Source: Candidatus Bathyarchaeota archaeon (lineage in GTDB: Archaea > Thermoproteota > Bathyarchaeia > 40CM-2-53-6). Taken from it: a DNA stretch of 64,000 nt. Within the stretch, counting starts at the first letter, position 1, and every line of letters starts with the position of its first letter. A program made the translations under genes and the position numbers. The notes under the pieces were generated by a model. The model had not been told where the DNA came from. It worked only from the letters and a program-made list of their open reading frames with translations, and did no database searches. Of the stretch, positions 1,252-54,710 are shown in pieces. The stretch lies in contig VBBN01000035.1 of NCBI GenBank assembly GCA_005888735.1, forward strand, positions 11,671 to 75,670, written 5' to 3'.

Positions 1252-1737
1252 ATGGAAAAACTGCGAGTTCGACCTCTGGCCCAAGATGACAAGAGGTGGG
1301 TCGCAGAGTTCACCGAGGAGCACTGGGGCGCGAGGAAGGTCGTCGCCAAGGAGCGAATCATCTATCCAGACGAGCTAGAGGGGTTCGTAGCCTTCAGAGG
1401 CGATAGGAAGGTTGGATTAGTCACTTATCACGTAGAAAGGGGCGAGTGTGAGATAGTTACGCTAAACAGCCTAGTGGAGGGACAAGGTATCGGGTCCTCC
1501 CTGATGGATGCGGTGAAGAAGGCTGCCATCTCCGCAGGTTGCGGGAGACTTTGGCTGATTACGACTAACGATAACATGTCCGCCCTGCGATTCTACCAGA
1601 AAAGGGGTTTTCGACTAGCAGCCCTTTACCTGAATGCTCTTGACCGCTCACGCCTGCTAAAACCGCAGATTCCATTGTTCGGGAAAGACGGCATTCCGCT
1701 GCGGGACGAGATAGAGCTCGACATGTCGCTCGCGTAA
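1252..1737 (+). CDS. GNAT family N-acetyltransferase
   Basis: Acetyl-CoA binding Q/RxxGxG/A motif (GQGIGSSLMDAV) and NDNMSALRFYQKRGF. The listed ORF starts at 1117, but the first ATG giving a typical GNAT N-terminus (MEKLRVRPL) is at 1252. Confidence 0.7.
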   Translation: MEKLRVRPLAQDDKRWVAEFTEEHWGARKVVAKERIIYPDELEGFVAFRGDRKVGLVTYHVERGECEIVTLNSLVEGQGIGSSLMDAVKKAAISAGCGRLWLITTNDNMSALRFYQKRGFRLAALYLNALDRSRLLKPQIPLFGKDGIPLRDEIELDMSLA

Positions 1738-2015
1738 GGCCGTCGTGAAGGAGCTAGAAAGTGTATTGAACGAGAATCCCGACCGGACAGAAAGCAAAAT
1801 GAAAACGGAACACAGGGCCGACGGTCGAAGAGTATCTTCACGGCCTTCCCCAAGAGGCGTTTCAGGAACGCTTCTTGCTCTGTTGTTCCGTTTTGCTCAG
1901 TACTTCCAGTTCTTCGGTGGAAAGGTCGCAGCGAGTGCCTGATAGATAGTCGCCGAAACCGTCCTCCCATCGTGTTCAAATCTGAGTCCCTGTTGTTCGG
2001 CGAGCTGTAATAGCC

Positions 2016-3101
2016 ATGGCAGAAGAGCCACCTGGCGGATTCCTCACACTCAGCGATCTTGAAGAAGCCGCCTCAAAGAACGCCCTCGAACCAGCTTGGG
2101 CCTATGTTCAAGGCGGCGCCGGCGAAGAGCTGACGATGAAGGCAAACCGCGAAGCATTCCAACGAAGGACACTTCGACCCCGCGCCCTAGTCAACGTAGA
2201 AACCCTAGACCTCACATCGACCCTCCTAGGGGAGAAAGTGAGCGCTCCTTTCTACGTCAGTCCCACCGCCTACCAGGGCCTACTCCATGCCGACGCGGAG
2301 CTAGCCACTGCTAGGGCAGCCAGTTCAGCAGAAATTCTCGCGATCTTCAGCACCATCAGTTCACGCTCGTTGGAGGATATCGCCCGAGCCGCCCCCAAAG
2401 GTCCTCGATGGTTCCAGCTCTATTTCCAACCAGAACAGGCAACGACTCAACGTTTGGTGGAACGGGCCGAGAAGGCCGGCTACACAGCAATAGTTCTGAC
2501 CGTGGATGCTCCCGTTTTTGGCAACAGGGACACGACAATTCTAGGAGGATTCAATGTGAGTTCCATCCCTCTCGGAAATGGCCCCGACGTTTTTCCTCCC
2601 ACACACCCCACGGCCATAGACCAGCTGTACCATAATCGCAGCGAAGCTTCAGCCACATGGGACACAGTAGACCAGCTTCGAACGCTAGCCCATCTTCCCA
2701 TCTTAGTCAAGGGGATCCTCACAAGTGAAGACGCTCAGCTGGCCTTAGATCATGGTGCAAAGGGAATAATCGTCAGCAACCACGGCGGACGCCAGCTCGA
2801 CCAAGCACAAGCCAGCCTAGACGCCCTCCCGGAAATTGTTGAAACGGTCGGAGCCAATGCCGCCGTCTACCTCGACGGGGGAATTCGTCGGGGAAGCGAC
2901 ATTCTAATCGCTCTCGCCATGGGAGCCAAAGCTGTCGGAGTTGGACGCCCCGTATTGTGGGCTCTAGCCGCAGGTGGGGAAGCGGGAGTGGCACGATTGC
3001 TCTCATTGCTGAAAGAAGACCTCGCCATCGCAATGGCCCTTACAGGACGGCGAACGATCGCTGAAGTCGACCGGACCCTTTTGGGCACACCCATTCAATA
3101 A
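2016..3101 (+). CDS. FMN-dependent alpha-hydroxy acid dehydrogenase/oxidase (glycolate oxidase / L-lactate dehydrogenase family)
   Basis: SNHGGRQLD active-site motif, TIM-barrel FMN-binding pattern, GIRRGSDIL. Length 361 aa. Confidence 0.85.
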   Translation: MAEEPPGGFLTLSDLEEAASKNALEPAWAYVQGGAGEELTMKANREAFQRRTLRPRALVNVETLDLTSTLLGEKVSAPFYVSPTAYQGLLHADAELATARAASSAEILAIFSTISSRSLEDIARAAPKGPRWFQLYFQPEQATTQRLVERAEKAGYTAIVLTVDAPVFGNRDTTILGGFNVSSIPLGNGPDVFPPTHPTAIDQLYHNRSEASATWDTVDQLRTLAHLPILVKGILTSEDAQLALDHGAKGIIVSNHGGRQLDQAQASLDALPEIVETVGANAAVYLDGGIRRGSDILIALAMGAKAVGVGRPVLWALAAGGEAGVARLLSLLKEDLAIAMALTGRRTIAEVDRTLLGTPIQ

Positions 3102-3157
3102 GAACTGTTTAGGCTGGACCCATTCTCATACCTTACTACCAAGCTTCCAAGGCGCTT

Positions 3158-3613
3158 TTAATCTTCAAGAGAGTTCCGGGACCTTTGGTCCCCGACTGAA
3201 CTCAGCTGGCTCTCGAATTCAACATGGCTCGAGAAGACGTGTTCGCTACCGAACTTTCGTCCGCACGAGCAGATGAACTCGTTTCGGTTTCTTGAAGCTA
3301 GGAAGTGCTCCGACTCTGCGAGAGTCTCGTCTCCGCCCGACTCTTCTGCTCCTTCATCATTGTCCAGTGGAGGGCCTCCGGGGATGTCTGGAGGCACGGG
3401 GATAGACGCATCCTTGGAATTGTTGTCTCTGTCCCCCTTTAGCTCTGCAACTATCAAGCCCGCAAGATCGTCTGACAGGATGCGAACATCTTCGAGCGTG
3501 GCTTCAATGATTGCCTTGCCGGGAATGTTTCCAGCTCTATGCTCCTTGCAGCCGTTCAGGGTAAAGGCTCTGCAGGTCAGGCAGTGATACCCTTTGGTCC
3601 ACCAAATTGTCAA
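3158..3613 (-). CDS. hypothetical protein with Cys/His clusters (possible zinc-binding) and an acidic low-complexity linker
   Basis: N-terminal HCLTCRAF...CKEH and C-terminal CSCGRKFGSEHVFSSH clusters. No confident family. Confidence 0.3.
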   Translation of the reverse strand: MTIWWTKGYHCLTCRAFTLNGCKEHRAGNIPGKAIIEATLEDVRILSDDLAGLIVAELKGDRDNNSKDASIPVPPDIPGGPPLDNDEGAEESGGDETLAESEHFLASRNRNEFICSCGRKFGSEHVFSSHVEFESQLSSVGDQRSRNSLED

Positions 3614-3888
3614 GCCGATGCCTCTGCAAGAGCCTAGGAGTAATGGCAGAGGAGGCGTGTGTTCCTCGATTTAACTGGATTGTACCTTCGATAGACCAGT
3701 ACGCATAAGCGGGCGTCCTCCCCTTGGGGAGACGATAATCCCGGCTCTGGGAAACCCTGAAACTCTCAGGGGTCCTAAGGACTAATCCCGTGGAGGCGAG
3801 TTGCTCGCGACCAAGGCGTAATGACCGTTCGCCATAGGTGCTAGAGTGATGCACGCTTATTAGAACCAGCCAACTGCATCCAGAAGCA

Positions 3889-4568: not shown

Positions 4569-6143
4569 TTGCGAGGATCACGAGGGGTCCTGTTAGCAGT
4601 AACCCTCTTTCTAGGAATCCTGGTTGCGGTGGGCGGCCTCCACAAAGTCAACGCCGCTGGGGAGGGATTCACGCTCACTTCGCTCCCCGCTCGGACCAGC
4701 GAGGGAAACGCCTCTGGCGTCGATCTCACGCTCTCGGTTACTAACGCAGCAAATCCAGGAAGCTACAGTTTTACCTGGACGGTGACAGACCCGTCTGGTG
4801 GGTCGGCGAGTACGACCAAGCCGGTCTTGTCAACCGCTGCAGCGTGGACTGTGGCTGCCAAGTATCCGTCAGACTTCGGCGCATCTCTTAATCTCGTTGG
4901 CTCTTACGATGTGATTATTGCCGAGAACCTCCCCTCGCTAAACTCCAGCATCGCAACAGGACAATTTACAGTCGGGCTAACAGACTACACATCATACCAA
5001 CGGACCTCGACAGTGCATGTAGAGGCCAGCGGGTACCTGCCCGCCGACAACGTGACGATCAACATAGTTTATGGAGCTACCTCTGTCTCTGGCTACCCAT
5101 CGAGTAAAAACGCGGATCCTACGGGGGCCGTCCAGTTTTCTTGGCAGACCGCCGTGGACTCTGCCCTTGGAAACTATACCGTCAGCCTTGCGGGAACGAA
5201 CACCGTCGCCAAAAATCCGGCTGACATTCAACAGGTCATAGTCTATCCGACCAACATCACATTGACGCCTCTGAGGACAGGCAGCATCGTCGTCCAGAGA
5301 ACTGAGACTGTTGATTTTTGGTTCAACGCTACATACCCCAACGGGGCTTTTGTCAACACCGGCTCGGCCCCGCTACGGCTCATGGAGCCGGATGGTGTGA
5401 CTATTCACACTGTCAACGCTATCTATGACCTGTCTTCTGGCACCTATCACGCGGCCTACCCGACGAGCCTCACCCATGCACAAGGAACATGGACAGCTAC
5501 TGTCGCCTCGGCAAGCTTCACTGACGCTTTCGGGAACAGCGGACCCTCCACAGTTCAGCAAACCAGTTTCAGTATCCAACGCGCAACACTGGCTGTTTCG
5601 CTTCTATCGTCCAGCGGAACATATGCCCAAGGCAGTGTCATTCCCCTGTACACCAAGGTCACGGTACCAGGGAACTACAATTTCACGCAGGGAGCAGTTA
5701 GCGCCGTTTTCATAAGCTCCGGACGAACCATCGTAGGACCGATTAGCCTAGTCTACGACCAGTCTCTGGGAAAGTGGACTGGAAGCTACAAGGTCAACAG
5801 GGTAGACCCGACCGGCACGTGGGTCGTGACCATAATCGCGTCAGACAACTACGGCAATATCGGTCAAGGAACCGCCTCTCTTAACGTAGACACTCAGGGG
5901 ACGCAAACCTCAGCGGACTTGGGCTGGGTCGTCTGGCTACTTGTACTTGTAATCGTCGGGCTCGGTTGCGGAATACTCATTTTGAGACGTCGAGGCGTGA
6001 TTCACCGAGAAGTCAAGCTTGACGTTCAAGCCATCAAACAGAAGGCTAACGAAGTGAAGGGCGACGATTTTCTTCAGTCAATCCAAACTCAGCTGAAGAG
6101 GAGAGCTGAGAGAATTGCGGCCGAGAAGGAGAAACGTGACTAG
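4569..6143 (+). CDS. type-I surface protein: signal peptide, beta-rich N-glycosylation-sequon-rich ectodomain, one C-terminal TM helix and a roughly 50-aa basic coiled cytoplasmic tail (paralog of 50752..52311)
   Basis: TTG start. N-terminus MRGSRGVLLAVTLFLGILVAVGG then AAGEG. Many N-x-S/T sequons. TM DLGWVVWLLVLVIVGLGCGILIL followed by RRRG... tail. Clear homology to the 50752 ORF (YSF..VTDPSG...YPSDF...VGLTD.S.Y.RT). Confidence 0.7.
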   Translation: MRGSRGVLLAVTLFLGILVAVGGLHKVNAAGEGFTLTSLPARTSEGNASGVDLTLSVTNAANPGSYSFTWTVTDPSGGSASTTKPVLSTAAAWTVAAKYPSDFGASLNLVGSYDVIIAENLPSLNSSIATGQFTVGLTDYTSYQRTSTVHVEASGYLPADNVTINIVYGATSVSGYPSSKNADPTGAVQFSWQTAVDSALGNYTVSLAGTNTVAKNPADIQQVIVYPTNITLTPLRTGSIVVQRTETVDFWFNATYPNGAFVNTGSAPLRLMEPDGVTIHTVNAIYDLSSGTYHAAYPTSLTHAQGTWTATVASASFTDAFGNSGPSTVQQTSFSIQRATLAVSLLSSSGTYAQGSVIPLYTKVTVPGNYNFTQGAVSAVFISSGRTIVGPISLVYDQSLGKWTGSYKVNRVDPTGTWVVTIIASDNYGNIGQGTASLNVDTQGTQTSADLGWVVWLLVLVIVGLGCGILILRRRGVIHREVKLDVQAIKQKANEVKGDDFLQSIQTQLKRRAERIAAEKEKRD

Positions 6144-6900
6144 AAGCATAGCCGTCCACTCCTACAAAGGGGGCACAGGGAAGACAACCATTACCGCCAA
6201 CGTAGCGGTCGCACTGGCCCTGAAAGGACGGAGAGTTGGAGTGATGGACATGGACCTGGAGGGACCTGGACTCCATGTGTTCTTCGACTTAGACCCAAGC
6301 CAGCTCAGATTCACCGTGAACGATGTTCTCGCGGGCGTCGCGCCTCCGGAAGCCGCTTGCGTCCGGATGAGTGAGAAGATGAATCTGAACGGGGGCGAGA
6401 TCTACTATACGCCCGCCAGCGTCAAAGTCTCCGAGATCATGCGCACCTTGAAGGAGGGTTTCGAGCTCGACACGTTCGAAAACGCCATCAGGAGACTCCA
6501 GGAAAAGTTCGGACTACATTACTTGCTCATAGACACGCACCCAGGCATACAGCACGACACGTTACTCGCGCTGGGAATTTGCGACCACCAAGTCGTAATT
6601 TCACGAGTCGACCAACAGGACATTTTCGGGACAGGAGTACTGGTCGAGATTTCAAGCACGATGGACAAACCCGTCCATCTAATTTTGAACATGATTCCAC
6701 CGCGCATCAGAGAGTCAGAAGTGCTAAAGTTCGCGAGGACCCTTGGAGCGCACTTTACAGTCGACATGGCCGGATGGCTTCCCTTCTCCGAAGAAGTCAT
6801 CGGCTCTCTCAGCAAAGCCATCCTAACATTGAAAATGCCGAGGAATCCGATGAGCCAGCGGTTCCGGGGACTCGCAGAGGCCATTGAGTCCTTCGCCTAG
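6136..6900 (+). CDS. ParA/MinD-family P-loop ATPase (deviant Walker A KGGTGKTT)
   Basis: HSYKGGTGKTTITANVAVALA, MDMDLEGPGL, LLIDTHPG. The likely GTG start at 6136 (MTRSIAVHSYKGG) matches the paralog N-terminus and overlaps the upstream stop by 8 nt. The ORF track starts at 6115. Confidence 0.8.
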   Translation: MTRSIAVHSYKGGTGKTTITANVAVALALKGRRVGVMDMDLEGPGLHVFFDLDPSQLRFTVNDVLAGVAPPEAACVRMSEKMNLNGGEIYYTPASVKVSEIMRTLKEGFELDTFENAIRRLQEKFGLHYLLIDTHPGIQHDTLLALGICDHQVVISRVDQQDIFGTGVLVEISSTMDKPVHLILNMIPPRIRESEVLKFARTLGAHFTVDMAGWLPFSEEVIGSLSKAILTLKMPRNPMSQRFRGLAEAIESFA

Positions 6901-6933
6901 GCGAGTGGCTCAGGCTATTTGGGCCGCGGCCAG

Positions 6934-7912
6934 CTAGCCGTGTTTTGCTAGAAACCCCAACACTACACTGTTGAGCTCTGCTGGATTCTCAATGTGTGGG
7001 AAGTGGGCACATTCCCCAATCACCGCCACCTCAGCACTCGGGATTGCCCCAGCGAGCCGGTCGACTATCGAATGTAGGACTTTCGGGCTGTTCTCCCCGT
7101 TTACCAGAAGAGTAGGAGCGGATATCTTTGACGCATCCACTTTGCCGAAAGGCGGAACCTCGGCAGTAAGCTCTCCTATCGTCTTCTCGTTCTCTTTCAC
7201 CATCCTTTGAACGGCTTCTGGAAGCTGATCAAAGGCTCCTCTCCGGTTCATGATCCCATCCAGATTGAGTCTTAGAGCGGCGTCGAAAATCGCCACGTTG
7301 GAAAGCAGCTAGTGATGGGTCTAGAGATGTTCGCTGAAACCGCGCAGCAGACATTGCTGTTGAAGGGCTTCTCAGTAAGAGCGAAAGGAGTTGCGGTATG
7401 CTCTTCCGATTCGTCAAGAGTATCGTCGAAACTGCCGGTTCTACAAGCGTGAGCGTGTGGAAAAGTCCAGGGTTCGTTGCAGCACAGTAGGCCGCAGCGA
7501 ACCCTCCATAAGAATGGCCAACAAGATGCACAGGCGAGACATCTAGTTCATGGATCAAGCCAGCAAGATCAGCCGAGTTGTTCTCAATGGTACTGCCTGC
7601 ATAGTCTTCCCGGTTATGGTTCGGGTTCGCCAGGCGTCTACTGTAAGCAATTACGTGATAGTTGGCCGAGAAGAGTCCAACTTGGGCGTCCCATGCGCGG
7701 TAATCCGTAGGAATGCCGTGCACGAAGAACACGGGATCACCTTGCCCCGCTTCTCGATAAGCGAGACTAATCTCGCCAACCTTGGCGATTTTCAAACCTG
7801 AGGACTGCATTAGCCCCGAAAAACGAGTTCTTCCCCAAAAGGTATTCCACAAGAGGACCGCAACTCCCCGGCAAAGTCGTCCCGGCAGCTTGGGCGAAGC
7901 TGATAAGGACAA
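6934..7912 (-). pseudogene. alpha/beta hydrolase, frameshifted (N-terminal part 7229..7912 and C-terminal part 6934..7296 lie in different frames)
   Basis: N-part has HGIPTDYRAW and the nucleophile elbow GHSYGG. C-part has the catalytic His region ECAHFPHIENP. The two ORFs overlap by 68 nt in different frames. Confidence 0.55.
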
Positions 7913-44923: not shown

Positions 44924-46177
44924 GTGAGCCCAATGCACCGCAATGGACTAGTAGCTTTGGCGGTCATCACAATTCTAGTGTTCGAATCGATGGTCCCAAG
45001 TATGGTGGCAGCAAGCAATCCCGTCTTGGTTTACTCGGGACTCAATTTTCCAGTTTCCTTCCGGTTCACACCTGATGGGCGAATACTCTTCAACGAGAGA
45101 ACGACAGGCAATATTCGGGTAATCCAGAGCGGGATAATCCTCCCAACACCGTTTGCAACACTGGCAGTGGCAACAGATGGACCCGAGCAGGGTCTTCTCG
45201 GCATGGCTCTAGACCCTGACTTTGCGACAAACGGGTTCGTCTATGTCTACCGGACAGTCTACAATGGGTCTTACTACCATGGACTGGTCACACGCCTCAA
45301 CGCAACAGGAAATACGGGAGTAAACCCCGTAACCATCTTCGACGTTACCAATCCATCTCCAGGCAACCTGTACCACAACGGGGGCTACCTCAAGTTCGGA
45401 CCTGACAGAAGGCTTTACGCGCAAGTCGGCGAATTTCAAAACCAACAGCTCGCTCAAAATCTCTCATCCAATGCTGGCAAGATTCTCAGAATGAACGCCG
45501 ATGGAACAGTACCTATCGACAACCCATACCGAGGAAGCCTTGTGTATGCCTACGGTATCAGAAACGGCTTCGGAATGGACTTCGACCCTACAAATGGCAA
45601 TCTCATTGAAACCGAAGCAGGCCCGGCCAGCAATGACGAGATCAATGTCATCGTCCCCAAGGGCAATTACGGCTGGCCCAATTGTTCAGGAAGGTGCACC
45701 AATACAGCCTACGTAGACCCCATCGCCACGTTCACTCCGGTAGTGACTCCCACGGGAATCGCTTACTCTTCAGGTGGCGAGTACTTTTTCGGCGAATGGA
45801 CTGGAGCCAGCCTCAACAGGTTGAAATTGAATTCGTCGGGTACTGTTCAATCCATTGAGCAAATCTCCCCCATTGGAGCCACCAACGATGGTGTCCTTGA
45901 CGTAGTTCTCGGCCCTGACCAGAAAATCTACTTCTCTACTAGGTCGGGAATCTACTCGTATGATACATCCTTTCCAGGCGGAACGGGACCGCCTTTCGCG
46001 CCTAACATTTCCTCAAGTCTGATTAGCTTCGGTCTCATCGCAATCGGAATCAGCGCAACAATAATTTTCGTACTGTTCTTCCAAAGGAGGCGCAAGCGGT
46101 CCGAGAGCCGACAGCCCGTGTGTCCAACGAAGTCGAAAGCCCTCCTTACCCTCCGTCGCCTAGAATCACAACTCTAG
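44924..46177 (+). CDS. PQQ-dependent sugar dehydrogenase (glucose/sorbosone dehydrogenase, SGDH family) with a C-terminal TM anchor
   Basis: Signal peptide, GLNFPVSFRFTPDGRILFNERTTGNIRVI, GLLGMALDPDF beta-propeller blocks, C-terminal TM plus RRRKR. Confidence 0.7.
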   Translation: MSPMHRNGLVALAVITILVFESMVPSMVAASNPVLVYSGLNFPVSFRFTPDGRILFNERTTGNIRVIQSGIILPTPFATLAVATDGPEQGLLGMALDPDFATNGFVYVYRTVYNGSYYHGLVTRLNATGNTGVNPVTIFDVTNPSPGNLYHNGGYLKFGPDRRLYAQVGEFQNQQLAQNLSSNAGKILRMNADGTVPIDNPYRGSLVYAYGIRNGFGMDFDPTNGNLIETEAGPASNDEINVIVPKGNYGWPNCSGRCTNTAYVDPIATFTPVVTPTGIAYSSGGEYFFGEWTGASLNRLKLNSSGTVQSIEQISPIGATNDGVLDVVLGPDQKIYFSTRSGIYSYDTSFPGGTGPPFAPNISSSLISFGLIAIGISATIIFVLFFQRRRKRSESRQPVCPTKSKALLTLRRLESQL

Positions 46178-46498: not shown

Positions 46499-46864
46499 TT
46501 GAGCGTCTCGAGCCGGCTAGCCGATGACCTCTTCGCTCTCGATGATAGAGTGCGTTACGTTGCAGTCTTGGATAGGAACCACAAGCTTGTCGAGTCGAGA
46601 ATGCGGTCCAGCGTTATGAGCTTGACTCCTGGGGAATATGATCGGAAGTTCATGGGAAGCGTTCCACCCCTCGTTCTAGATACCGTGTCCCAGCTCGAAG
46701 CCCAGTGTGGACCTGTGAGCCACATTTCAATACAGTACCAGAGAGTAGACTTGGTTTTCTTCCCCTACAATAACCAGATTCTCGCGCTGAGCCTTGAGCC
46801 AGGTCCGTTGGAGCCAATTCTTCGCAAGCTGAAGGAAAAGTTCGGTTTGAAGATCCATCTCTGA
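46499..46864 (+). CDS. Roadblock/LC7 (MglB-like) domain protein (putative)
   Basis: 121 aa with an alpha-beta-beta-alpha-beta pattern (...YVAVLDRNHKLVESR...QRVDLVFFPYNNQILALSLEPG...). TTG start, uncertain. Confidence 0.4.
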   Translation: MSVSSRLADDLFALDDRVRYVAVLDRNHKLVESRMRSSVMSLTPGEYDRKFMGSVPPLVLDTVSQLEAQCGPVSHISIQYQRVDLVFFPYNNQILALSLEPGPLEPILRKLKEKFGLKIHL

Positions 46865-49026: not shown

Positions 49027-50367
49027 ATGCCCACTTCCTCAACTTTGCAAACGAAGGAGCCGAAAGTATCGTACCAGCGAGTCTTTGAACTCTTGGAAGC
49101 CCATCACAAATGGTTCCAGCAGTCCCTTCCCCTGATTGCCAGCGAGAATATCCCGAGCCAGGCTGTTCGCGAAGCGATCCTCTCGGACTTTGGCAATCGG
49201 TACGCAGAGGGGTGGCCGGGTGAGAGAGTCTACGCAGGTTGCAAGTACATTGACCAGGTCGAGCTTTTGTGCAAACAGCTAGCTGAGGAATTGTTCCGGG
49301 TCGAGTTTGCGGACGTTCGCCCCGTCTCGGGGGTCTGTGCAAACCTCGTTGCATACACCACTTTCACGAACCCCGCTGATACGATGATGGCTCTACCCAT
49401 TCCTGCTGGCGGGCACATCAGCATGGGAAAGAAGGAATTCGGAGGGACAGCAGGCTCTGTTCGAGGGTTGAACGTCGAGTATTTTCCGTTCGATACCGAC
49501 ATGATGGACATCGATGTTGACGCGACAAAGAAGAGGGTCGAGAAACTGGTTGCCGAGGGCAAGAAACCTGCTCTAGCCATGTTCGGTGGCTCGGTGCTCC
49601 TCTTTCCTCAACCGGTCCGTGAGCTTTCAGACTTCTTCCACGAGCTTGATGCGAAGGTCTGCTTCGACGCGGCCCATGTCGCTGGGCTGGTCGCGGGGGG
49701 AAAATTCCAAGACCCAATCCATGAAGGGGCGGATGCCATGACATGCAGTACGCACAAGACACTCCCAGGGCCTCAGGGAGGACTGATTATTTCACATGCT
49801 AGGTATGGCGAGGCAATAAAAAAATCTACCTTCCCTAGCAACTTGAGCAACCACCACCTGCACCATTTGGCGGGGAAGGCCGTGATGTTCGCTGAGATGA
49901 TGGCGTTCGGCCGCGAGTACGTTACTCAGATTGTCAGGAATAGCAAGGCCCTTGCGCAAGCTATGCACGAACGTGGTTTCAAGGTCATGGGCGAGAAGCG
50001 TGGTTTCACCGAGTCCCACCAATTGGTAGCTGATATCACGAAGTACGGGGATGGGAGGACTATAGAGAAGCGGTTGGAGAACTCGAACATCATTCTCAAC
50101 CGCAACCTTCTGCCATATGATATCAAGGCCGGCAGGCATTTTGAAGCTCCCGGAGGGATCAGAATGGGAGTATCCGAGCTTACACGTCTTGGAATGAGCG
50201 AGTCTGAGATGGTCGATATCGCAGAGCTAATCGCACGAGTGGTTGTGAAGCGAGAGTCCCCTGAGAAAGTGGCGGCGGACGTGGCCGAGTTCCGAAAGGA
50301 CTACAATCGTGTCAAGTACGCCTTCGACTCGACACGCGACGCATACGAGTACATCAGACTGCGCTGA
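49027..50367 (+). CDS. glyA: serine hydroxymethyltransferase
   Basis: PLP-lysine motif TCSTHKTLPGPQGG, 446 aa, archaeal-type SHMT blocks. Confidence 0.9.
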   Translation: MPTSSTLQTKEPKVSYQRVFELLEAHHKWFQQSLPLIASENIPSQAVREAILSDFGNRYAEGWPGERVYAGCKYIDQVELLCKQLAEELFRVEFADVRPVSGVCANLVAYTTFTNPADTMMALPIPAGGHISMGKKEFGGTAGSVRGLNVEYFPFDTDMMDIDVDATKKRVEKLVAEGKKPALAMFGGSVLLFPQPVRELSDFFHELDAKVCFDAAHVAGLVAGGKFQDPIHEGADAMTCSTHKTLPGPQGGLIISHARYGEAIKKSTFPSNLSNHHLHHLAGKAVMFAEMMAFGREYVTQIVRNSKALAQAMHERGFKVMGEKRGFTESHQLVADITKYGDGRTIEKRLENSNIILNRNLLPYDIKAGRHFEAPGGIRMGVSELTRLGMSESEMVDIAELIARVVVKRESPEKVAADVAEFRKDYNRVKYAFDSTRDAYEYIRLR

Positions 50368-50483
50368 TAGACCTCCAAAAGCCTTGGACGGTACGCTTAA
50401 TACAGTCAGGCGCTGACCTCTATACGACAAACGGCTGATCGGTGTTGGGAGAAAGGGAGAAGAGGCGTCGAAAAGAAGCACCA

Positions 50484-50621
50484 ATGCCAGCCGCTAGTGC
50501 TGGACTCTTGCGGTTTTTCGAAGAGGACACTCCGGGAGTCAAGCTCAGTCCCCAACTGGTCGTCATATCGGGTATCCTTCTTGTGACCTTCGCCCTGATG
50601 GCCTACTTCCTTCTTCCCTAG
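50484..50621 (+). CDS. secG: preprotein translocase subunit SecG / Sec61-beta (45 aa; not in the ORF track)
   Basis: MPAASAGLLRFFEEDTPGVKLSPQLVVISGILLVTFALMAYFLLP. The AGLxRYF-EE...K..P motif plus a single C-terminal TM is the archaeal Sec61beta pattern. Confidence 0.55.
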   Translation: MPAASAGLLRFFEEDTPGVKLSPQLVVISGILLVTFALMAYFLLP

Positions 50622-50751: not shown

Positions 50752-52311
50752 TTGGGAATACTATCTCGAAAAACAAAAACACTGATTCTCGTTCTGGTCG
50801 CATCATTGTTCCTTGCGGTTGGCCTCGTTCCAGTCCACGCAGCCACTCAGTACGCACTGTCTTTGAACCCCGGGCGAACTCAGGAGCAAAGCTCGCCGGG
50901 TGTGACTGTAACCCTTACTGTTACGGGCGCTAGTAGCGGGCAGCCTTATTCTTTCCTACTTCTGGTCACTGACCCCTCAGGCGCAAAGAGCAACGCAACA
51001 CGTAGCACAATCGCCCCTGGGTCCGCATTTTCCTTTCAGCTGAACTACCCATCAGACTTCTCGCGTGGGTCCATCAAATATGTAGGGCAGTACAACGTTA
51101 ATGTTGCCCAAACTACACCCTCAGTCAGTGCAAGTGTTGCCTCCGGACACCTTGACGTCGGGCTAACAGACAAATCTACGTATGAGAGAACTTATCCAGT
51201 CTCGATAAAGGCAGATGCGTATTCTTCGAACGAAACGGTGAGGATTGACATTACACATGCTTCATTATCAGCGCCCGACTTTCCGGCCTTCGTCAACGCA
51301 GACCCATCTGGCAATGTTTTCTTCTCCTGGCTAACGACCCCGGATCTTCCAATAGGAAACTACAATGTAACTATAACTGGGGGTTCCACTGTAAAGGCGG
51401 TCCGTGACTCTCAAAGCTTCCTGCTCGACCTGACGGGCGTTACGATCCGCGGGATCAATGTCGCGCAGAGTTCGCTTATGCGAAGCCAGACTGCTCGGTT
51501 CAGTTTCTCCGCCGACTATCTTGGAGGCGGACCCGTGCAGAGCGGATTCGCGACTCTACTCGTGACTCAACCGGATTTCACGATTCAGCAAGTCCCTGCA
51601 ACGTACAACGCGACGAGCGCCCGGTTCGAGGCCGGCTATCGGATACCTCTGGTGAGCATGAACGGATCCTGGACTGCCTTGGTGAAAGCAAACAGCCTGC
51701 AGGATTCGTACGGGAATAGCGGGCCCGACAGTAGTCCTTCTGCGGATTTCATCGTCACACCGGCGTCTCTAAGTGTCGATTTGAACTTCACCAGGGGTGA
51801 TATTGTGATCGGCAACGTTGTAGCTATTTACTCGAACATCACGACTCCAGACGGAAGCAGTTTCGCGGCGGGAACAGTATCAGCCTTCGTCTCCCCTCCT
51901 GGACGCCCCATTGGAAACCAGGTTAACCTTCTCTATGACAGCAGCCAACGAAAATGGGTCGGCAGTTACACTGTGTCCACTAACGACCCATCCGGGGTCT
52001 GGCTAGTCAAGGTATCAGCTTCTGACCCCTATGGTAATTCGGGTTCGGGTTCCACATCGTCAATCGTAACCGTTGTTGCTCCAGTCAGTCAAGGGTCGAC
52101 TCTTACACTTTGGTTCTTGACAGCTTTCGGGGCTATCGCAGCCGGCCTCTTGGTCGGGCTCTTCTTGTTGAGAAGGAAACGGACTTTTCAGCACCACCTG
52201 CAGGTTGACCTTCAAGCAGTCAGCGAGGAGGCTAGCAAGGTCAAGAATCAAGAGTTCTTCCAGTCTATCAAGGAACAGATAGAAAAGCAGAGAGAGGGCA
52301 AAGGTTCCTAG
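50752..52311 (+). CDS. type-I surface protein, paralog of 4569..6143 (signal peptide, sequon-rich ectodomain, TM, conserved basic cytoplasmic tail)
   Basis: TTG start. ILVLVASLFLAVGLVPVHA signal peptide. Ectodomain blocks shared with the paralog. TM LWFLTAFGAIAAGLLVGLFLL then the RRKR... tail. Confidence 0.7.
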   Translation: MGILSRKTKTLILVLVASLFLAVGLVPVHAATQYALSLNPGRTQEQSSPGVTVTLTVTGASSGQPYSFLLLVTDPSGAKSNATRSTIAPGSAFSFQLNYPSDFSRGSIKYVGQYNVNVAQTTPSVSASVASGHLDVGLTDKSTYERTYPVSIKADAYSSNETVRIDITHASLSAPDFPAFVNADPSGNVFFSWLTTPDLPIGNYNVTITGGSTVKAVRDSQSFLLDLTGVTIRGINVAQSSLMRSQTARFSFSADYLGGGPVQSGFATLLVTQPDFTIQQVPATYNATSARFEAGYRIPLVSMNGSWTALVKANSLQDSYGNSGPDSSPSADFIVTPASLSVDLNFTRGDIVIGNVVAIYSNITTPDGSSFAAGTVSAFVSPPGRPIGNQVNLLYDSSQRKWVGSYTVSTNDPSGVWLVKVSASDPYGNSGSGSTSSIVTVVAPVSQGSTLTLWFLTAFGAIAAGLLVGLFLLRRKRTFQHHLQVDLQAVSEEASKVKNQEFFQSIKEQIEKQREGKGS

Positions 52312-52312
52312 T

Positions 52313-53077
52313 TTGGTTAGGACCATTACGGTTCACTCTTTCAAGGGAGGAACCGGTAAGAGCACAATCACAGCCAATCTTGCCACAGCACTCGCCGCGA
52401 GGGGGAGACGAGTAGGCGTGATGGATATGGACCTGGAAGGTCCTGGGCTTCATGTTATTTTCAACATAACACCTGAAGAGGTGAAGCATACTCTAAATGA
52501 TGTACTGCTTGACGCCGTTAGTCCTGACGAAGCAGTCATACCTATGAACGGTCGACTGGGGTTGGAGGCCGGCTCTCTCTACTTCAGTCCCGCCAGCGTG
52601 AGAGTGGGTGAAATGCTCAGAACTCTCAGAACCGGTTTCGAGCTGGAATCGTTCTCCCGAGCCATAGCCAAGCTTGGAACGAGCTTCAAACTCGATTACG
52701 TCATGATTGACACACATCCAGGAATCGAGAACGATACGCTTCTGGTGATGGGAGTGTGCGACCACTTGGTTATCGTGTCTAGAATTGACCAGCAGGACAT
52801 TTTCGGAACCGGGGTCGTGGTGGACATCGCACGGACCCTCGAAAAGCCGGCGCACCTTGTCGTTAACATGGTCCCCAAAGGCCTGAAGGCTTCCGACGCA
52901 TCAAAGCTGGTGAAAGGGATCGGGCACCACTTCAAGGTTGACGTGGCCGGATGGCTGCCGTTTTCAGATGCGGTCCAAAGCTCCTTGAGCAAATCGGTCT
53001 TCATCCTAACCAACCCCAGAGACGCAGTGGCGTCTAGGTTTCAAGACCTTGCAAAACAACTAGAGTCCTACAACTAG
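52313..53077 (+). CDS. ParA/MinD-family P-loop ATPase (paralog of 6136..6900)
   Basis: HSFKGGTGKSTITANLATALA, MDMDLEGPGL, VMIDTHPG. TTG start 1 nt after the upstream stop. Confidence 0.8.
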   Translation: MVRTITVHSFKGGTGKSTITANLATALAARGRRVGVMDMDLEGPGLHVIFNITPEEVKHTLNDVLLDAVSPDEAVIPMNGRLGLEAGSLYFSPASVRVGEMLRTLRTGFELESFSRAIAKLGTSFKLDYVMIDTHPGIENDTLLVMGVCDHLVIVSRIDQQDIFGTGVVVDIARTLEKPAHLVVNMVPKGLKASDASKLVKGIGHHFKVDVAGWLPFSDAVQSSLSKSVFILTNPRDAVASRFQDLAKQLESYN

Positions 53078-53088
53078 GGAGTGGGTAA

Positions 53089-53661
53089 ATGTCAGGTTCA
53101 CCAGGAAGGTTCTCTACTAACAGCCTGAGACGCCTGATAACTTCCATGAACTCCATCCGGTTCCGCGACGAATCTGGAGAGATTGAGTACTTCGGGCAAA
53201 AGGTCGTCCTGTTGAGACGAGACGTTTTTGGGCTCATACGAGGAGAACTTTCACGGGTAGCCGGACCCGCAGCAAACGTCATCATCAGCCTAGCGGGCCG
53301 AAAAGTCGGAACGGAAGAGGGACAAGCACTCGCACTCAAGGCCGAGGCCCTGGGATTGAACGGGCCACAGGCGTTTCCTGACTTCCTCAAAACAGCGGTT
53401 GAAGAGACTAATATGGGAATAGGAAAGATCAGAGTGTCTGATCTTGACCTTCAAAACGGTAGGGTCGATATCACGGTCGTGAACGGGTTCGAATCGGATC
53501 GTCCAGGCGGCTCGTTGAAACCCACCTGCTTCTTCACACTCGGGTACTTAGAGGGAATATTTTCCAAGCTGACTGGCAAGGAGCTTCGCGGACGTGAAGT
53601 GGCCTGCAACGCAAAAGGTGACACACTCTGCCGGTTCTCCCTAAACATGTCGGCTCAGTAG
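53089..53661 (+). CDS. V4R (vinyl-4-reductase-like) domain protein
   Basis: C-terminal CFFTLGYLEGIFSKLTGKELRGREVACNAKGDTLCRFS matches the V4R Cys/Gly pattern (C..G...G......E..C...GD..C.F). Confidence 0.5.
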   Translation: MSGSPGRFSTNSLRRLITSMNSIRFRDESGEIEYFGQKVVLLRRDVFGLIRGELSRVAGPAANVIISLAGRKVGTEEGQALALKAEALGLNGPQAFPDFLKTAVEETNMGIGKIRVSDLDLQNGRVDITVVNGFESDRPGGSLKPTCFFTLGYLEGIFSKLTGKELRGREVACNAKGDTLCRFSLNMSAQ

Positions 53662-54710
53662 CTCTCCCAGAGAGTTCGCTGCGCGAAACTCGGCACGACC
53701 CGCGCTTCGATTCCCAGCCTGGCTTTGAGCGCGTATCGGAGCTCGTCGGCGAACCCTGTGAAAATGTAGACTTGACGTGGGGCGCATTCTCTAATGAAAC
53801 CTACTAGCTGGTCAAAGTCGGCGTGGCTGCTGAGTGGAAAGGCTGTCGCTCGGCTCTTTGCCGAGAGAGCCCACCCTGTGGCGTAGGCTCTCGAGAATCT
53901 CCGTCCAAGGTGCTTCCGATCATTCGGCGTTGTCACGTAGACGCACGGCATGTTTTCAAGCGTCTCTTTTCCGTCCGTGGAATGGTCTGAGAGCCAGTGG
54001 AGGTTGTTCCCGTTCTTGTGGTAGGTCTTGTTGACGCCGTCGAGGCGTTGGTCCACTACTACGGGGATCCTCGTATAGGAGTTGAAAAGCCGTATGATTT
54101 CCTGTCCTTTGCCGGCAGCGTAGACATGGAGGCATGGAACGATTCCGTGCCGTAAGGTGTCCAAGGCCCATTCGACGATTGTGGCGTAGACGTTCTCGCG
54201 AGGAGGGAACTTGTAGAAGGGCGAACCATATGTTGCTTCAATGATGAGCACGTCGCACTTCTCCGGCTGGGCTGCCTTCGTTGTCAACGTGTCAACGCAG
54301 TTGATGTCTCCTGTGTAGAGAATAGTAATGTTCGGGGTCCTGACTAGGAACTGGGCGCTTCCGAGCATGTGTCCTGCGTTGATGGCTTTGACTTCGGTAT
54401 CATCGAACTTGGCCAGGTGTCCTAGTTCAAGGGCCGTGAAATTGGTGACTTTTTGGTCGTTCAGTGCGCGGTGAATGTCGCGGGTCTCCGTAGTTGATTG
54501 TTTGTGTCCTCGGTGACTGAATCCGCGTGTGTGGTCGGCGTGCGCATGACTGACAAAGGCCCAAGCATTGTGTGGGAGCCGATGGAGCCGGACAGGGTCT
54601 ACTGCGAGCGTGATATCAGGTGTGGCAACGACCAGGCCGTCCAGCCATCCAATTCTATCGTTTAGCGTCCGGCTTTCCCTCGGGAATACTCTCCAGGCGT
54701 TGTATCGCAT
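53655..54710 (-). CDS. metallo-beta-lactamase fold, beta-CASP family hydrolase (putative RNA-metabolising nuclease)
   Basis: HAHADH motif, ATYG, and the beta-CASP motif-C-like LSSHADFDQLVGFI. Confidence 0.55.
   Translation of the reverse strand: MRYNAWRVFPRESRTLNDRIGWLDGLVVATPDITLAVDPVRLHRLPHNAWAFVSHAHADHTRGFSHRGHKQSTTETRDIHRALNDQKVTNFTALELGHLAKFDDTEVKAINAGHMLGSAQFLVRTPNITILYTGDINCVDTLTTKAAQPEKCDVLIIEATYGSPFYKFPPRENVYATIVEWALDTLRHGIVPCLHVYAAGKGQEIIRLFNSYTRIPVVVDQRLDGVNKTYHKNGNNLHWLSDHSTDGKETLENMPCVYVTTPNDRKHLGRRFSRAYATGWALSAKSRATAFPLSSHADFDQLVGFIRECAPRQVYIFTGFADELRYALKARLGIEARVVPSFAQRTLWESY

Follow-up and report, generated by a model that had tools for sequence, protein, structure and literature searches.

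The partners of archaeal MinD/ParA-type ATPases are, to our knowledge, poorly characterised. In bacteria and archaea, MinD/ParA proteins position membrane-associated cargo via partner proteins (PMC11588486). The functions of prokaryotic V4R proteins are not thoroughly understood (PMC2253512), while in the regulator MopR the sensor domain controls the activity of the downstream ATPase (PMC9556785). We analysed a 64,000-nucleotide stretch of DNA from Candidatus Bathyarchaeota archaeon (assembly GCA_005888735.1, contig VBBN01000035.1, positions 11,671 to 75,670 of the forward strand; hereafter the window), in which the genes for a surface protein, a MinD/ParA-superfamily ATPase and a V4R protein lie side by side (copy B), and a second surface-protein/ATPase pair (copy A) lies elsewhere. 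Each part comes from a known superfamily, and what appears to be new is the combination of partners together with the ATPase subfamily, for which nothing was found in the literature searched, although coverage was incomplete and absence is not proven. Nor does the literature found describe any MinD/ParA ATPase whose partners are a V4R protein and an Ig-like type I membrane protein.

The three genes of copy B are encoded on the + strand, as the sequence-only reading of this DNA had described them. Surface protein B (50752..52311, 519 aa) is followed after 1 nt by ATPase B (52313..53077, 254 aa), which in turn is followed after 11 nt by the V4R gene (53089..53661, 190 aa), these gaps being taken from the ORF coordinates; the sequence 5′ of the V4R ATG is GGAGTGGG. 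Copy B is one copy of a module conserved in soil Bathyarchaeia and is probably read as a single transcript.

The conservation of this unit was followed in a census of 94 related loci from soil Bathyarchaeia, which were scanned by tblastn, with counts taken over the loci that have enough flanking sequence; most of the contigs come from metagenome-assembled genomes (MAGs) labelled Bathyarchaeia or Bathyarchaeota. Of 85 informative loci, 74 have the V4R gene directly 3′ of the ATPase gene, and they span several genomic contexts that are unrelated to one another; this disposes of the counterargument, put forward with the original proposal, that V4R might not accompany the pair elsewhere. A surface-protein homolog lies directly 5′ of the ATPase gene in 74 of 82 informative loci. 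Dereplication at 95% ATPase identity (lineages) leaves V4R present in 21 lineages, absent in 6 and undetermined in 3, and the 11 clades defined at 80% identity all have the ATPase, with the surface protein present in 9 of them and V4R in 6. No fourth gene family is conserved, since clustering of all neighbouring ORFs otherwise gave only antisense shadow ORFs.

The genes are also tightly coupled. The stop codon of the surface gene overlaps the ATPase start by 4–11 nt in 55 of 60 loci, and in the full census the V4R gene begins 3–32 nt past the end of the ATPase match; measured from ATPase stop to V4R start across the dereplicated lineages, the spacing is −4 to +12 nt. Of 29 lineages, 22 have a Shine-Dalgarno-like motif ahead of the ATPase start codon, and 12 of 21 have one ahead of the V4R start codon. 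The flanks of copy B, comprising genes for serine hydroxymethyltransferase (SHMT), Sec61beta, a metallo-beta-lactamase-fold (MBL) protein, Alba and an aminotransferase, are common only to the clades orthologous to copy B, whereas the other V4R-bearing clades sit in unrelated surroundings. Pairwise distances in V4R and in the cytoplasmic tail of the surface protein correlate with those in the ATPase (r = 0.91 and r = 0.93, respectively), indicating that the cassette was duplicated and inherited as a whole.

Copy A illustrates this duplication within the window. It encodes surface protein A (4569..6143, +, 524 aa), which has the architecture of its copy B counterpart and a Pfam MG2 match (1.2e-9), and ATPase A (6136..6900, +). 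The ORF list starts ATPase A at an upstream TTG (6115), but the GTG at 6136 is the likely start, because it is preceded by AAGGAG, overlaps the stop of surface gene A by 8 nt in the manner of the junction most common elsewhere, and yields a protein of 254 aa, equal in length to ATPase B. By BLASTP the surface proteins of the two copies are 36% identical over 511 aa (E=1e-100) and the ATPases 55% identical over 251 aa (E=5e-107), with 39 of the N-terminal 50 ATPase residues identical when counted from the alignment. The two copies are true diverged paralogs and not a chance resemblance; the high N-terminal similarity of the ATPases and the relatedness of the surface proteins, both of which had been asserted from the letters alone, are borne out.

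A tblastn scan of the window with all five proteins turns up just two surface/ATPase pairs and a single V4R gene, so that copy A has no V4R gene downstream and no second V4R gene exists in the whole window, in agreement with the earlier description of copy A. Its orthologs in three other loci (L004, L007 and L008) have no V4R gene either within 5–6 kb of downstream sequence. In a neighbor-joining tree (unbootstrapped, rooted on E. coli MinD) the lineages lacking V4R are nested among those that have it, suggesting an ancestral three-gene module followed by several losses of V4R, one of which gave rise to the copy A type. The copy A lineage may thus have lost its V4R gene, and its ATPase may run unregulated or borrow a V4R protein in trans. 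The view of copies A and B as two specialised versions of one module holds insofar as the diverged paralogs are real, but understates the situation, as the family to which they belong comprises many paralogs, its ATPases forming at least 11 clades at 80% identity. The MAG BA_6 (VBBA01), for example, contains at least three distinct ATPase loci with differing arrangements (L009, L010, L013 and L014, the last two of which look like halves of one locus split across contigs).

The catalytic motifs of the ATPase are intact. ATPase B shares its fold class with the MinD/ParA positioning ATPases (bacterial MinD, Haloferax MinD4/MinD2, FlhG/FleN, BcsQ and TadZ), its nearest PDB relatives are MinD proteins (E=5.6e-15), and it is 28% identical to E. 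coli MinD, with K11, K16, D38, D40 and D133 aligned between the two and also conserved in the family. The MinD-type deviant Walker A motif (SFKGGTGKST, residues 9–18, 52337..52366, +) includes the signature K11 together with K16, and K11, G12, G13, G15, K16 and T18 are nearly invariant in 19 family members; the switch I Asp and Walker B Asp are present, as is a MinD-type PAS motif (YFSPAS). Pfam matches are to ParA/AAA_31/CbiA/MipZ, the best being PF10609 (NUBPL iron-transfer P-loop NTPase, E=3.6e-19, full length). All NCBIfam scores nevertheless fall under the curated cut-offs of the named families: minD_arch (TIGR01969) 76.5 vs 201.75, minD_bact (TIGR01968) 68.6 vs 212.9, ParA_partition 52.1 vs 180, MrpORP 59.6 vs 450, ApbC 39.4 vs 348, the BY-kinase (bacterial tyrosine kinase) family TIGR01007 38.7 vs 108.05 (E=7.3e-10), and the KGGVGR-variant AAA ATPase NF047398 86 vs 90, the motif here being KGGTGKS and not KGGVGR. 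By these scores the ATPase is a distinct subfamily of the MinD/ParA superfamily. Conserved residues atypical of MinD include an invariant Cys149 within a GVCDH consensus stretch and invariant His47, His135 (DTHPG) and His181.

The ATPase differs from the known MinD/ParA systems in lacking a C-terminal targeting helix and in occurring as multiple paralogs within a genome, every one of them linked to a membrane protein of its own. Residues 2–252 of ATPase B align to residues 15–257 of FleN (5j1j, 285 aa), ending ~28 residues before the FleN C-terminus, and the alignment with E. coli MinD stops well before the C-terminal KGFLKRLFGG of the latter. As there is no C-terminal extension beyond residue 254, a membrane-targeting helix is missing. 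The sequence thus predicts a protein that has all of the residues for ATP-dependent sandwich dimerisation but no membrane anchor. No MinC/MinE-type, ParB-like or DNA-binding neighbour is conserved among the clustered ORFs around the ATPase loci.

A membrane attachment could instead be supplied by the surface protein, which has type I architecture: a signal peptide, an ectodomain, one transmembrane (TM) helix and a conserved cytoplasmic tail. The predicted signal peptide (residues 1–30, 50752..50841, +) has a basic n-region and hydrophobic core, is modelled by AlphaFold2 (AF2) as a helix over residues 6–24, and would be cleaved after VHA, a site we infer from the sequence. The AF2 model (mean predicted local distance difference test, pLDDT, 80.9) contains strands throughout residues 33–442, arranged in four Ig/MG-like β-sandwich domains (~30–136, 150–225, 229–336 and 341–442). 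The Foldseek matches, none of which is to an enzymatic domain, are tandem Ig-like extenders of adhesins and MG domains of complement, and Pfam gives a weak MG2 match. The TM helix (residues 449–474, 52096..52173, +) is supported both by the model and by a hydrophobic stretch in 22 homologs. In a separate observation, residues 398–511, which cover the last Ig domain, the TM helix and the tail, match Pfam DUF6232 (29.0 vs a threshold of 27.4 bits, E=1.5e-6); this match is absent from copy A, and in surface protein B composition or the TM segment may drive it.

The tail itself (residues 475–519, 52174..52308, +) consists of basic stop-transfer residues followed by an amphipathic motif, approximately hLxVDhxAVxxEAxxVxxxxFFxSIxxQL, in which three residues (D486, F502, Q509) never vary and four others (A489, A494, V497, L510) hardly do. 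AF2 places two short helices here (490–498 and 501–515). The conserved residues recur every 3–4 positions, like one face of a helix, and a profile search retrieved only 43 cluster representatives out of 1.84 billion, with the motif at the extreme C-terminus in every one. Because it is rare, always C-terminal and conserved with this spacing, the tail looks like a docking surface. An alternative identity as an archaeosortase-type sorting signal was rejected, as the ~45 conserved residues past the TM helix are too long for such a signal. The same profile search gave no unrelated ectodomains bearing the tail; every carrier had this core ectodomain, in some cases interrupted by PKD or Big_3_5 domains. 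In six longer homologs (P0259, P0262, P0267, P0270, P0273 and P0274; 619–797 aa) one or two PKD/Big_3_5 domains lie between the last core β-sandwich and the TM helix, indicating modular growth of the ectodomain.

The third protein, recognised beforehand as a 190-aa V4R protein, is confirmed as such by Pfam (V4R, E=5.9e-14, 52.3 bits vs a gathering threshold of 31, residues 128–185), and the whole of it resembles the sensor (A) domain of XylR, DmpR, MopR and PoxR. The Pfam XylR_N match is weak in the window protein (1.5e-3), while the homolog in locus L060 passes the XylR_N cut-off, and NCBIfam MobR aligns residues 20–183 to positions 13–180. The window protein is 100% identical to one recorded for a Candidatus Bathyarchaeota archaeon under the locus tag E6H36_02440. 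A profile of the family matches MopR (2.6e-7), PoxR (1.3e-5) and DmpR/CapR, then MJ1460 (3.3e-3). The AF2 model (pLDDT 74, with residues 1–41 poor) superimposes on the MopR/PoxR/DmpR sensor domains with Foldseek TM-scores of 0.69–0.73 over 182–193 columns (E ~1e-8); matches to MJ1460, Asgard TRAPPC3, Bet3 and H-NOX are weaker, with Bet3/TRAPPC3 (TM-scores 0.45–0.58) ranking under MopR, PoxR, DmpR and MJ1460. All 95 V4R homologs found are ~105–224 aa long, and the window protein stands alone, without fusion to a sigma-54 AAA+ or helix-turn-helix domain. It thus differs from XylR/DmpR/MopR in being a stand-alone archaeal protein whose neighbouring ATPase is MinD-type and not AAA+.

Four residues, C147, E170, C173 and C181 (C-x22-E-x2-C-x7-C, 53527..53631, +), are invariant in 40 homologs, which also share a strongly conserved N-terminal block, NSIRFRD...EYFGQ, and they align with C155, E178, C181 and C189 of MopR, where the three cysteines coordinate zinc (PMC9556785). 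The V4R protein, with the same Cys/Glu/Cys/Cys spacing, therefore probably binds zinc. The MopR motif N-S-F-E-A-E also corresponds to the family consensus NSFEAE; in the window protein this stretch is N-G-F-E-S-D, and N132, F134 and E135 are retained. At the positions that anchor phenol in MopR, H106 and W134 (PMC9556785), the window protein has Glu106, an extrapolation beyond the aligned block, and Val130, respectively; the polar invariant residues at the phenol-anchor positions of the family suggest a different ligand or a protein interface. An invariant, polar EETN stretch in the region of the pocket likewise speaks against phenols.

V4R proteins are also of interest as likely ancestors of the eukaryotic TRAPP Bet3 fold. 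The superfold is shared with TRAPP Bet3/TRAPPC3 and with the archaeal V4R proteins MJ1460 and Thorarchaeota TRAPPC3 (Foldseek E 1e-5 to 1e-4). The eukaryotic TRAPP fold sits in a complex regulating the P-loop NTPase Rab. The window protein differs from the TRAPP and archaeal V4R proteins in having an additional XylR_N part and in neighbouring a SIMIBI-class ATPase and not a small GTPase. Asgard TRAPPC3-type proteins bind zinc (PMC10933270). A further claim of the sequence-only reading, that V4R proteins often partner with roadblock proteins and NTPases in archaea, found no supporting paper, and the contrary is reported for the Asgard archaeon MK-D1, whose small GTPase genes are generally not operonic with roadblock, longin or TRAPPC3 genes (PMC10933270). 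The window ORF named in that connection as roadblock/LC7-like (46499..46864, +, 121 aa) could not be upheld as such, with no Pfam match at E≤5, no NCBIfam match and no PDB sequence match at E≤10; it lies ~4 kb from copy B, beyond opposite-strand genes.

How might the three proteins act together? The physical contacts among them and their cellular output can be inferred only in outline, and we put forward the following tentatively, with a confidence a little below even. The conserved cytoplasmic tail would serve as the membrane receptor for the co-translated ATPase, a proposal that follows from an ATPase with no anchor of its own and a translationally coupled gene that supplies an amphipathic tail. 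ATP-driven dimerisation of the ATPase on the tails would then cluster or position the surface protein or switch its state, and the XylR_N+V4R zinc protein would regulate how the ATPase cycles, perhaps by responding to a small ligand other than a phenol. This regulatory role of V4R is proposed from the precedent of XylR/DmpR/MopR, in which a homologous sensor domain gates an AAA+ ATPase.

A more specific form of this proposal, which we regard as possible but rather unlikely, is that the V4R protein, a relative in prokaryotes of TRAPP Bet3, has direct control of nucleotide cycling in a tail-docked MinD-type SIMIBI ATPase on an Ig-like surface receptor, constituting a previously unrecognised archaeal membrane system. 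If so, it would be the first operon-level link in archaea between a V4R/TRAPP fold and a P-loop NTPase, and would give the stand-alone V4R proteins of archaea a concrete function. The tight, conserved linkage of the three partners makes testable predictions in either case, namely binding between tail peptide and ATPase and binding or regulation between V4R and ATPase. The module also marks a multi-copy surface-protein family in soil Bathyarchaeia, an abundant uncultured group with an essentially unknown cell envelope.

Several observations weigh against tail docking and V4R regulation. Conservation of the tail does not exceed that of the N-terminal ectodomain (mean pairwise identity 0.46 vs 0.48), and its modelled helices are of low confidence (pLDDT ~41–60). 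The high distance correlations among the three components are expected from whole-cassette duplication alone. The phenol-anchoring residues of MopR are not conserved in the V4R protein, so a small ligand is conjecture only. Neither partner is strictly required in cis, as one lineage (the L064/L049 group) has lost the surface gene and keeps ATPase and V4R, and six lineages have the surface gene and ATPase but no V4R. Additionally, no ATPase positions cleanly separate lineages with V4R from those without it, S115, M146 and I203 being weak candidates only. In the loci without a surface gene (L063–L067 and L072; for example L065, 4172..5740) the copy B flanks of SHMT, Sec61beta, MBL, Alba and aminotransferase genes are kept, and there is a 4-nt overlap between the ATPase gene and the V4R gene.

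A physical link between tail and ATPase gains support from a second arrangement of the same ectodomain family. Two surface-protein homologs of ~720 aa have the same ectodomain and TM helix, but where the tail would be they carry a fused cytoplasmic KaiC-like domain (Pfam KaiC 1.9e-26), and there is no MinD-like or V4R gene at their locus. Paralogs with this fusion include P0245, P0247 and those at 1507..3663 of locus L095 and 5497..7698 of locus L060; in the L060 clade the fusion gene lies ~700 nt downstream of a complete surface/ATPase/V4R module. The Walker A motif of the KaiC-like domain is GSGATT or GSGTTT, and without the canonical lysine the domain may be able to bind ATP yet unable to hydrolyse it. 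There are thus two ways in which the ectodomain family is joined to a cytoplasmic P-loop module, suggesting a general rule in this lineage that Ig-like surface proteins are wired to cytoplasmic P-loop modules. The likeness to KaiC/FlaH-like domains concerns these fused paralogs, not the genes of the window.

The fusions also bear on the alternative that fares best, outside-in signalling, in which the ectodomain would bind an external ligand, surface or cell, the tail would pass this on to the ATPase as a switch, and V4R would be an intracellular small-molecule input or an output carrier. This overlaps with the tail-docking proposal and differs in that the purpose is sensing rather than positioning of the surface protein; we hold it to be doubtful though possible. 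Makarova et al. in 2017, a work cited in PMC6393860, are said to have proposed KaiC-like ATPases as archaeal signal-transduction hubs, and fusion of the same ectodomain to such a domain would fit this role, as would the many paralogs, fast-diverging middle domains and inserted PKD/Big domains, which are reminiscent of receptor families, and the status of V4R domains as classical sensor modules (PMC2253512). However, no DNA-binding, kinase or methyl-accepting output module is conserved nearby, the ectodomain has no recognisable ligand-binding domain beyond generic β-sandwiches, and MinD/ParA proteins are known as positioning ATPases and not as signal relays (PMC11588486).

A role in metal or cofactor handling is considerably less probable. 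Here the ATPase would be an Mrp/NBP35/ApbC-like or HypB-associated metallochaperone, the Cys-rich V4R protein its metal-binding partner, and the surface protein a client or merely co-expressed. PF10609 as the best Pfam match, PDB matches that include Mrp-homolog ATPases (3vx3) and Fe-S carriers, the invariant Cys/Glu/Cys/Cys set of V4R and the invariant C149, H47, H135 and H181 of the ATPase all point in this direction. Against it, the ATPase sequence has no CxxC motif, C149 being the sole invariant Cys of the family, and its MrpORP and ApbC scores are far below the cut-offs. We know of no counterpart in metallochaperone systems to the strict linkage with a membrane-protein tail. The zinc site of MopR equivalent to that of V4R is, moreover, credited with structural integrity (PMC9556785).

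We consider it highly improbable that the pair is BY-kinase-like, with the cytoplasmic segment of the membrane protein activating an adjacent MinD-related autokinase for assembly of a surface polymer or glycoprotein, as in Firmicute CapA/CapB. The layout is alike, a membrane partner with a cytoplasmic C-terminal segment being encoded beside a MinD-related P-loop protein, and weak matches exist to TIGR01007, to EpsG (1.3e-6) and to the CapA-CapB chimeras 3bfv and 4jmp (E ~3e-6), but the last of these span only residues 2–64 and the TIGR01007 score is well short of its cut-off. There is no C-terminal tyrosine cluster in ATPase B, which ends ...QLESYN with one Tyr (ATPase A ends ...ESFA), and the partner is a single-pass Ig-like protein and not a two-TM polysaccharide co-polymerase, with no polysaccharide or other glycan-synthesis genes conserved nearby.

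Chance adjacency through genome compaction, with the ATPase an ordinary archaeal MinD/ParA for division or DNA segregation, can be set aside as very improbable: source annotations do call the homologs MinD, and the ATPase and V4R genes each occur without one partner, but the census contradicts this reading, since the gene order persists, with stop and start codons overlapping, through 11 or more ATPase clades whose contexts differ. Every paralogous surface protein is moreover paired with a separate ATPase, the minD_arch score is low, no ParB-like or Min partner is nearby, and the two or three or more copies per genome are unlike a core division gene.

Some further assignments for the ATPase and its neighbours were tried and rejected. 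A defence system is not indicated, PADLOC giving only a generic N-terminal P-loop match for the ATPase (PDC-M28B) and none for the other two proteins. Get3-like tail-anchor insertion is disfavoured by an ArsA_ATPase match of only E=0.003, by the signal peptide of the surface protein and by Sec61beta adjacency in 2 of 11 clades. The orp cluster, raised by the MrpORP match, involves OrpR, which senses via a PAS Fe-S domain and not V4R, and the Dip divisome-positioning system (PMC13228585), a three-protein archaeal oscillator of a GTPase, a DUF2073 protein and a Zn-ribbon protein, is unrelated.

Just 5′ of copy B lies the gene for Sec61beta, the archaeal SecG (50442..50621, +, Pfam 5.8e-12), and also just upstream is the SHMT gene (49027..50367, +), an arrangement that is kept only at the orthologous locus of related MAGs. 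The presence of SecG upstream had been correctly noted in the sequence-only reading, but of the 11 ATPase clades only 2 show the antisense shadow ORF of this gene, which makes the adjacency look incidental. The sequence TTTAGAG, ~85 nt upstream of surface gene B, is too weak to call as a TATA box. On the other side, the MBL gene (53655..54710, −) converges on the V4R gene with a 7-nt overlap of the stop codons; its product has a weak RMMBL (RNA-specificity) match, and it adjoins V4R only in loci orthologous to copy B.

A few contigs or proteins that carry the module have unexpected taxon labels: L005 (DASPWZ010000009.1), L008 (JAJPJY010000066.1), P0023 and P0067 go under the names Candidatus Dormiibacterota bacterium, "bacterium" or Candidatus Binatus sp. 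As the module is otherwise specific to Bathyarchaeia, these may reflect mis-binning or, less likely, lateral transfer. The window additionally codes for an Alba-like protein, whose homolog in locus L001 has a Pfam Alba match, and for what reads as a thermosome, a group II chaperonin. Also encoded here is a glucose/sorbosone dehydrogenase β-propeller (44924..46177, +, Pfam GSDH 2.6e-56), which bears a signal peptide as well as a C-terminal TM anchor with a basic tail; it too is extracellular and anchored in the membrane, but is unrelated to the cassette.

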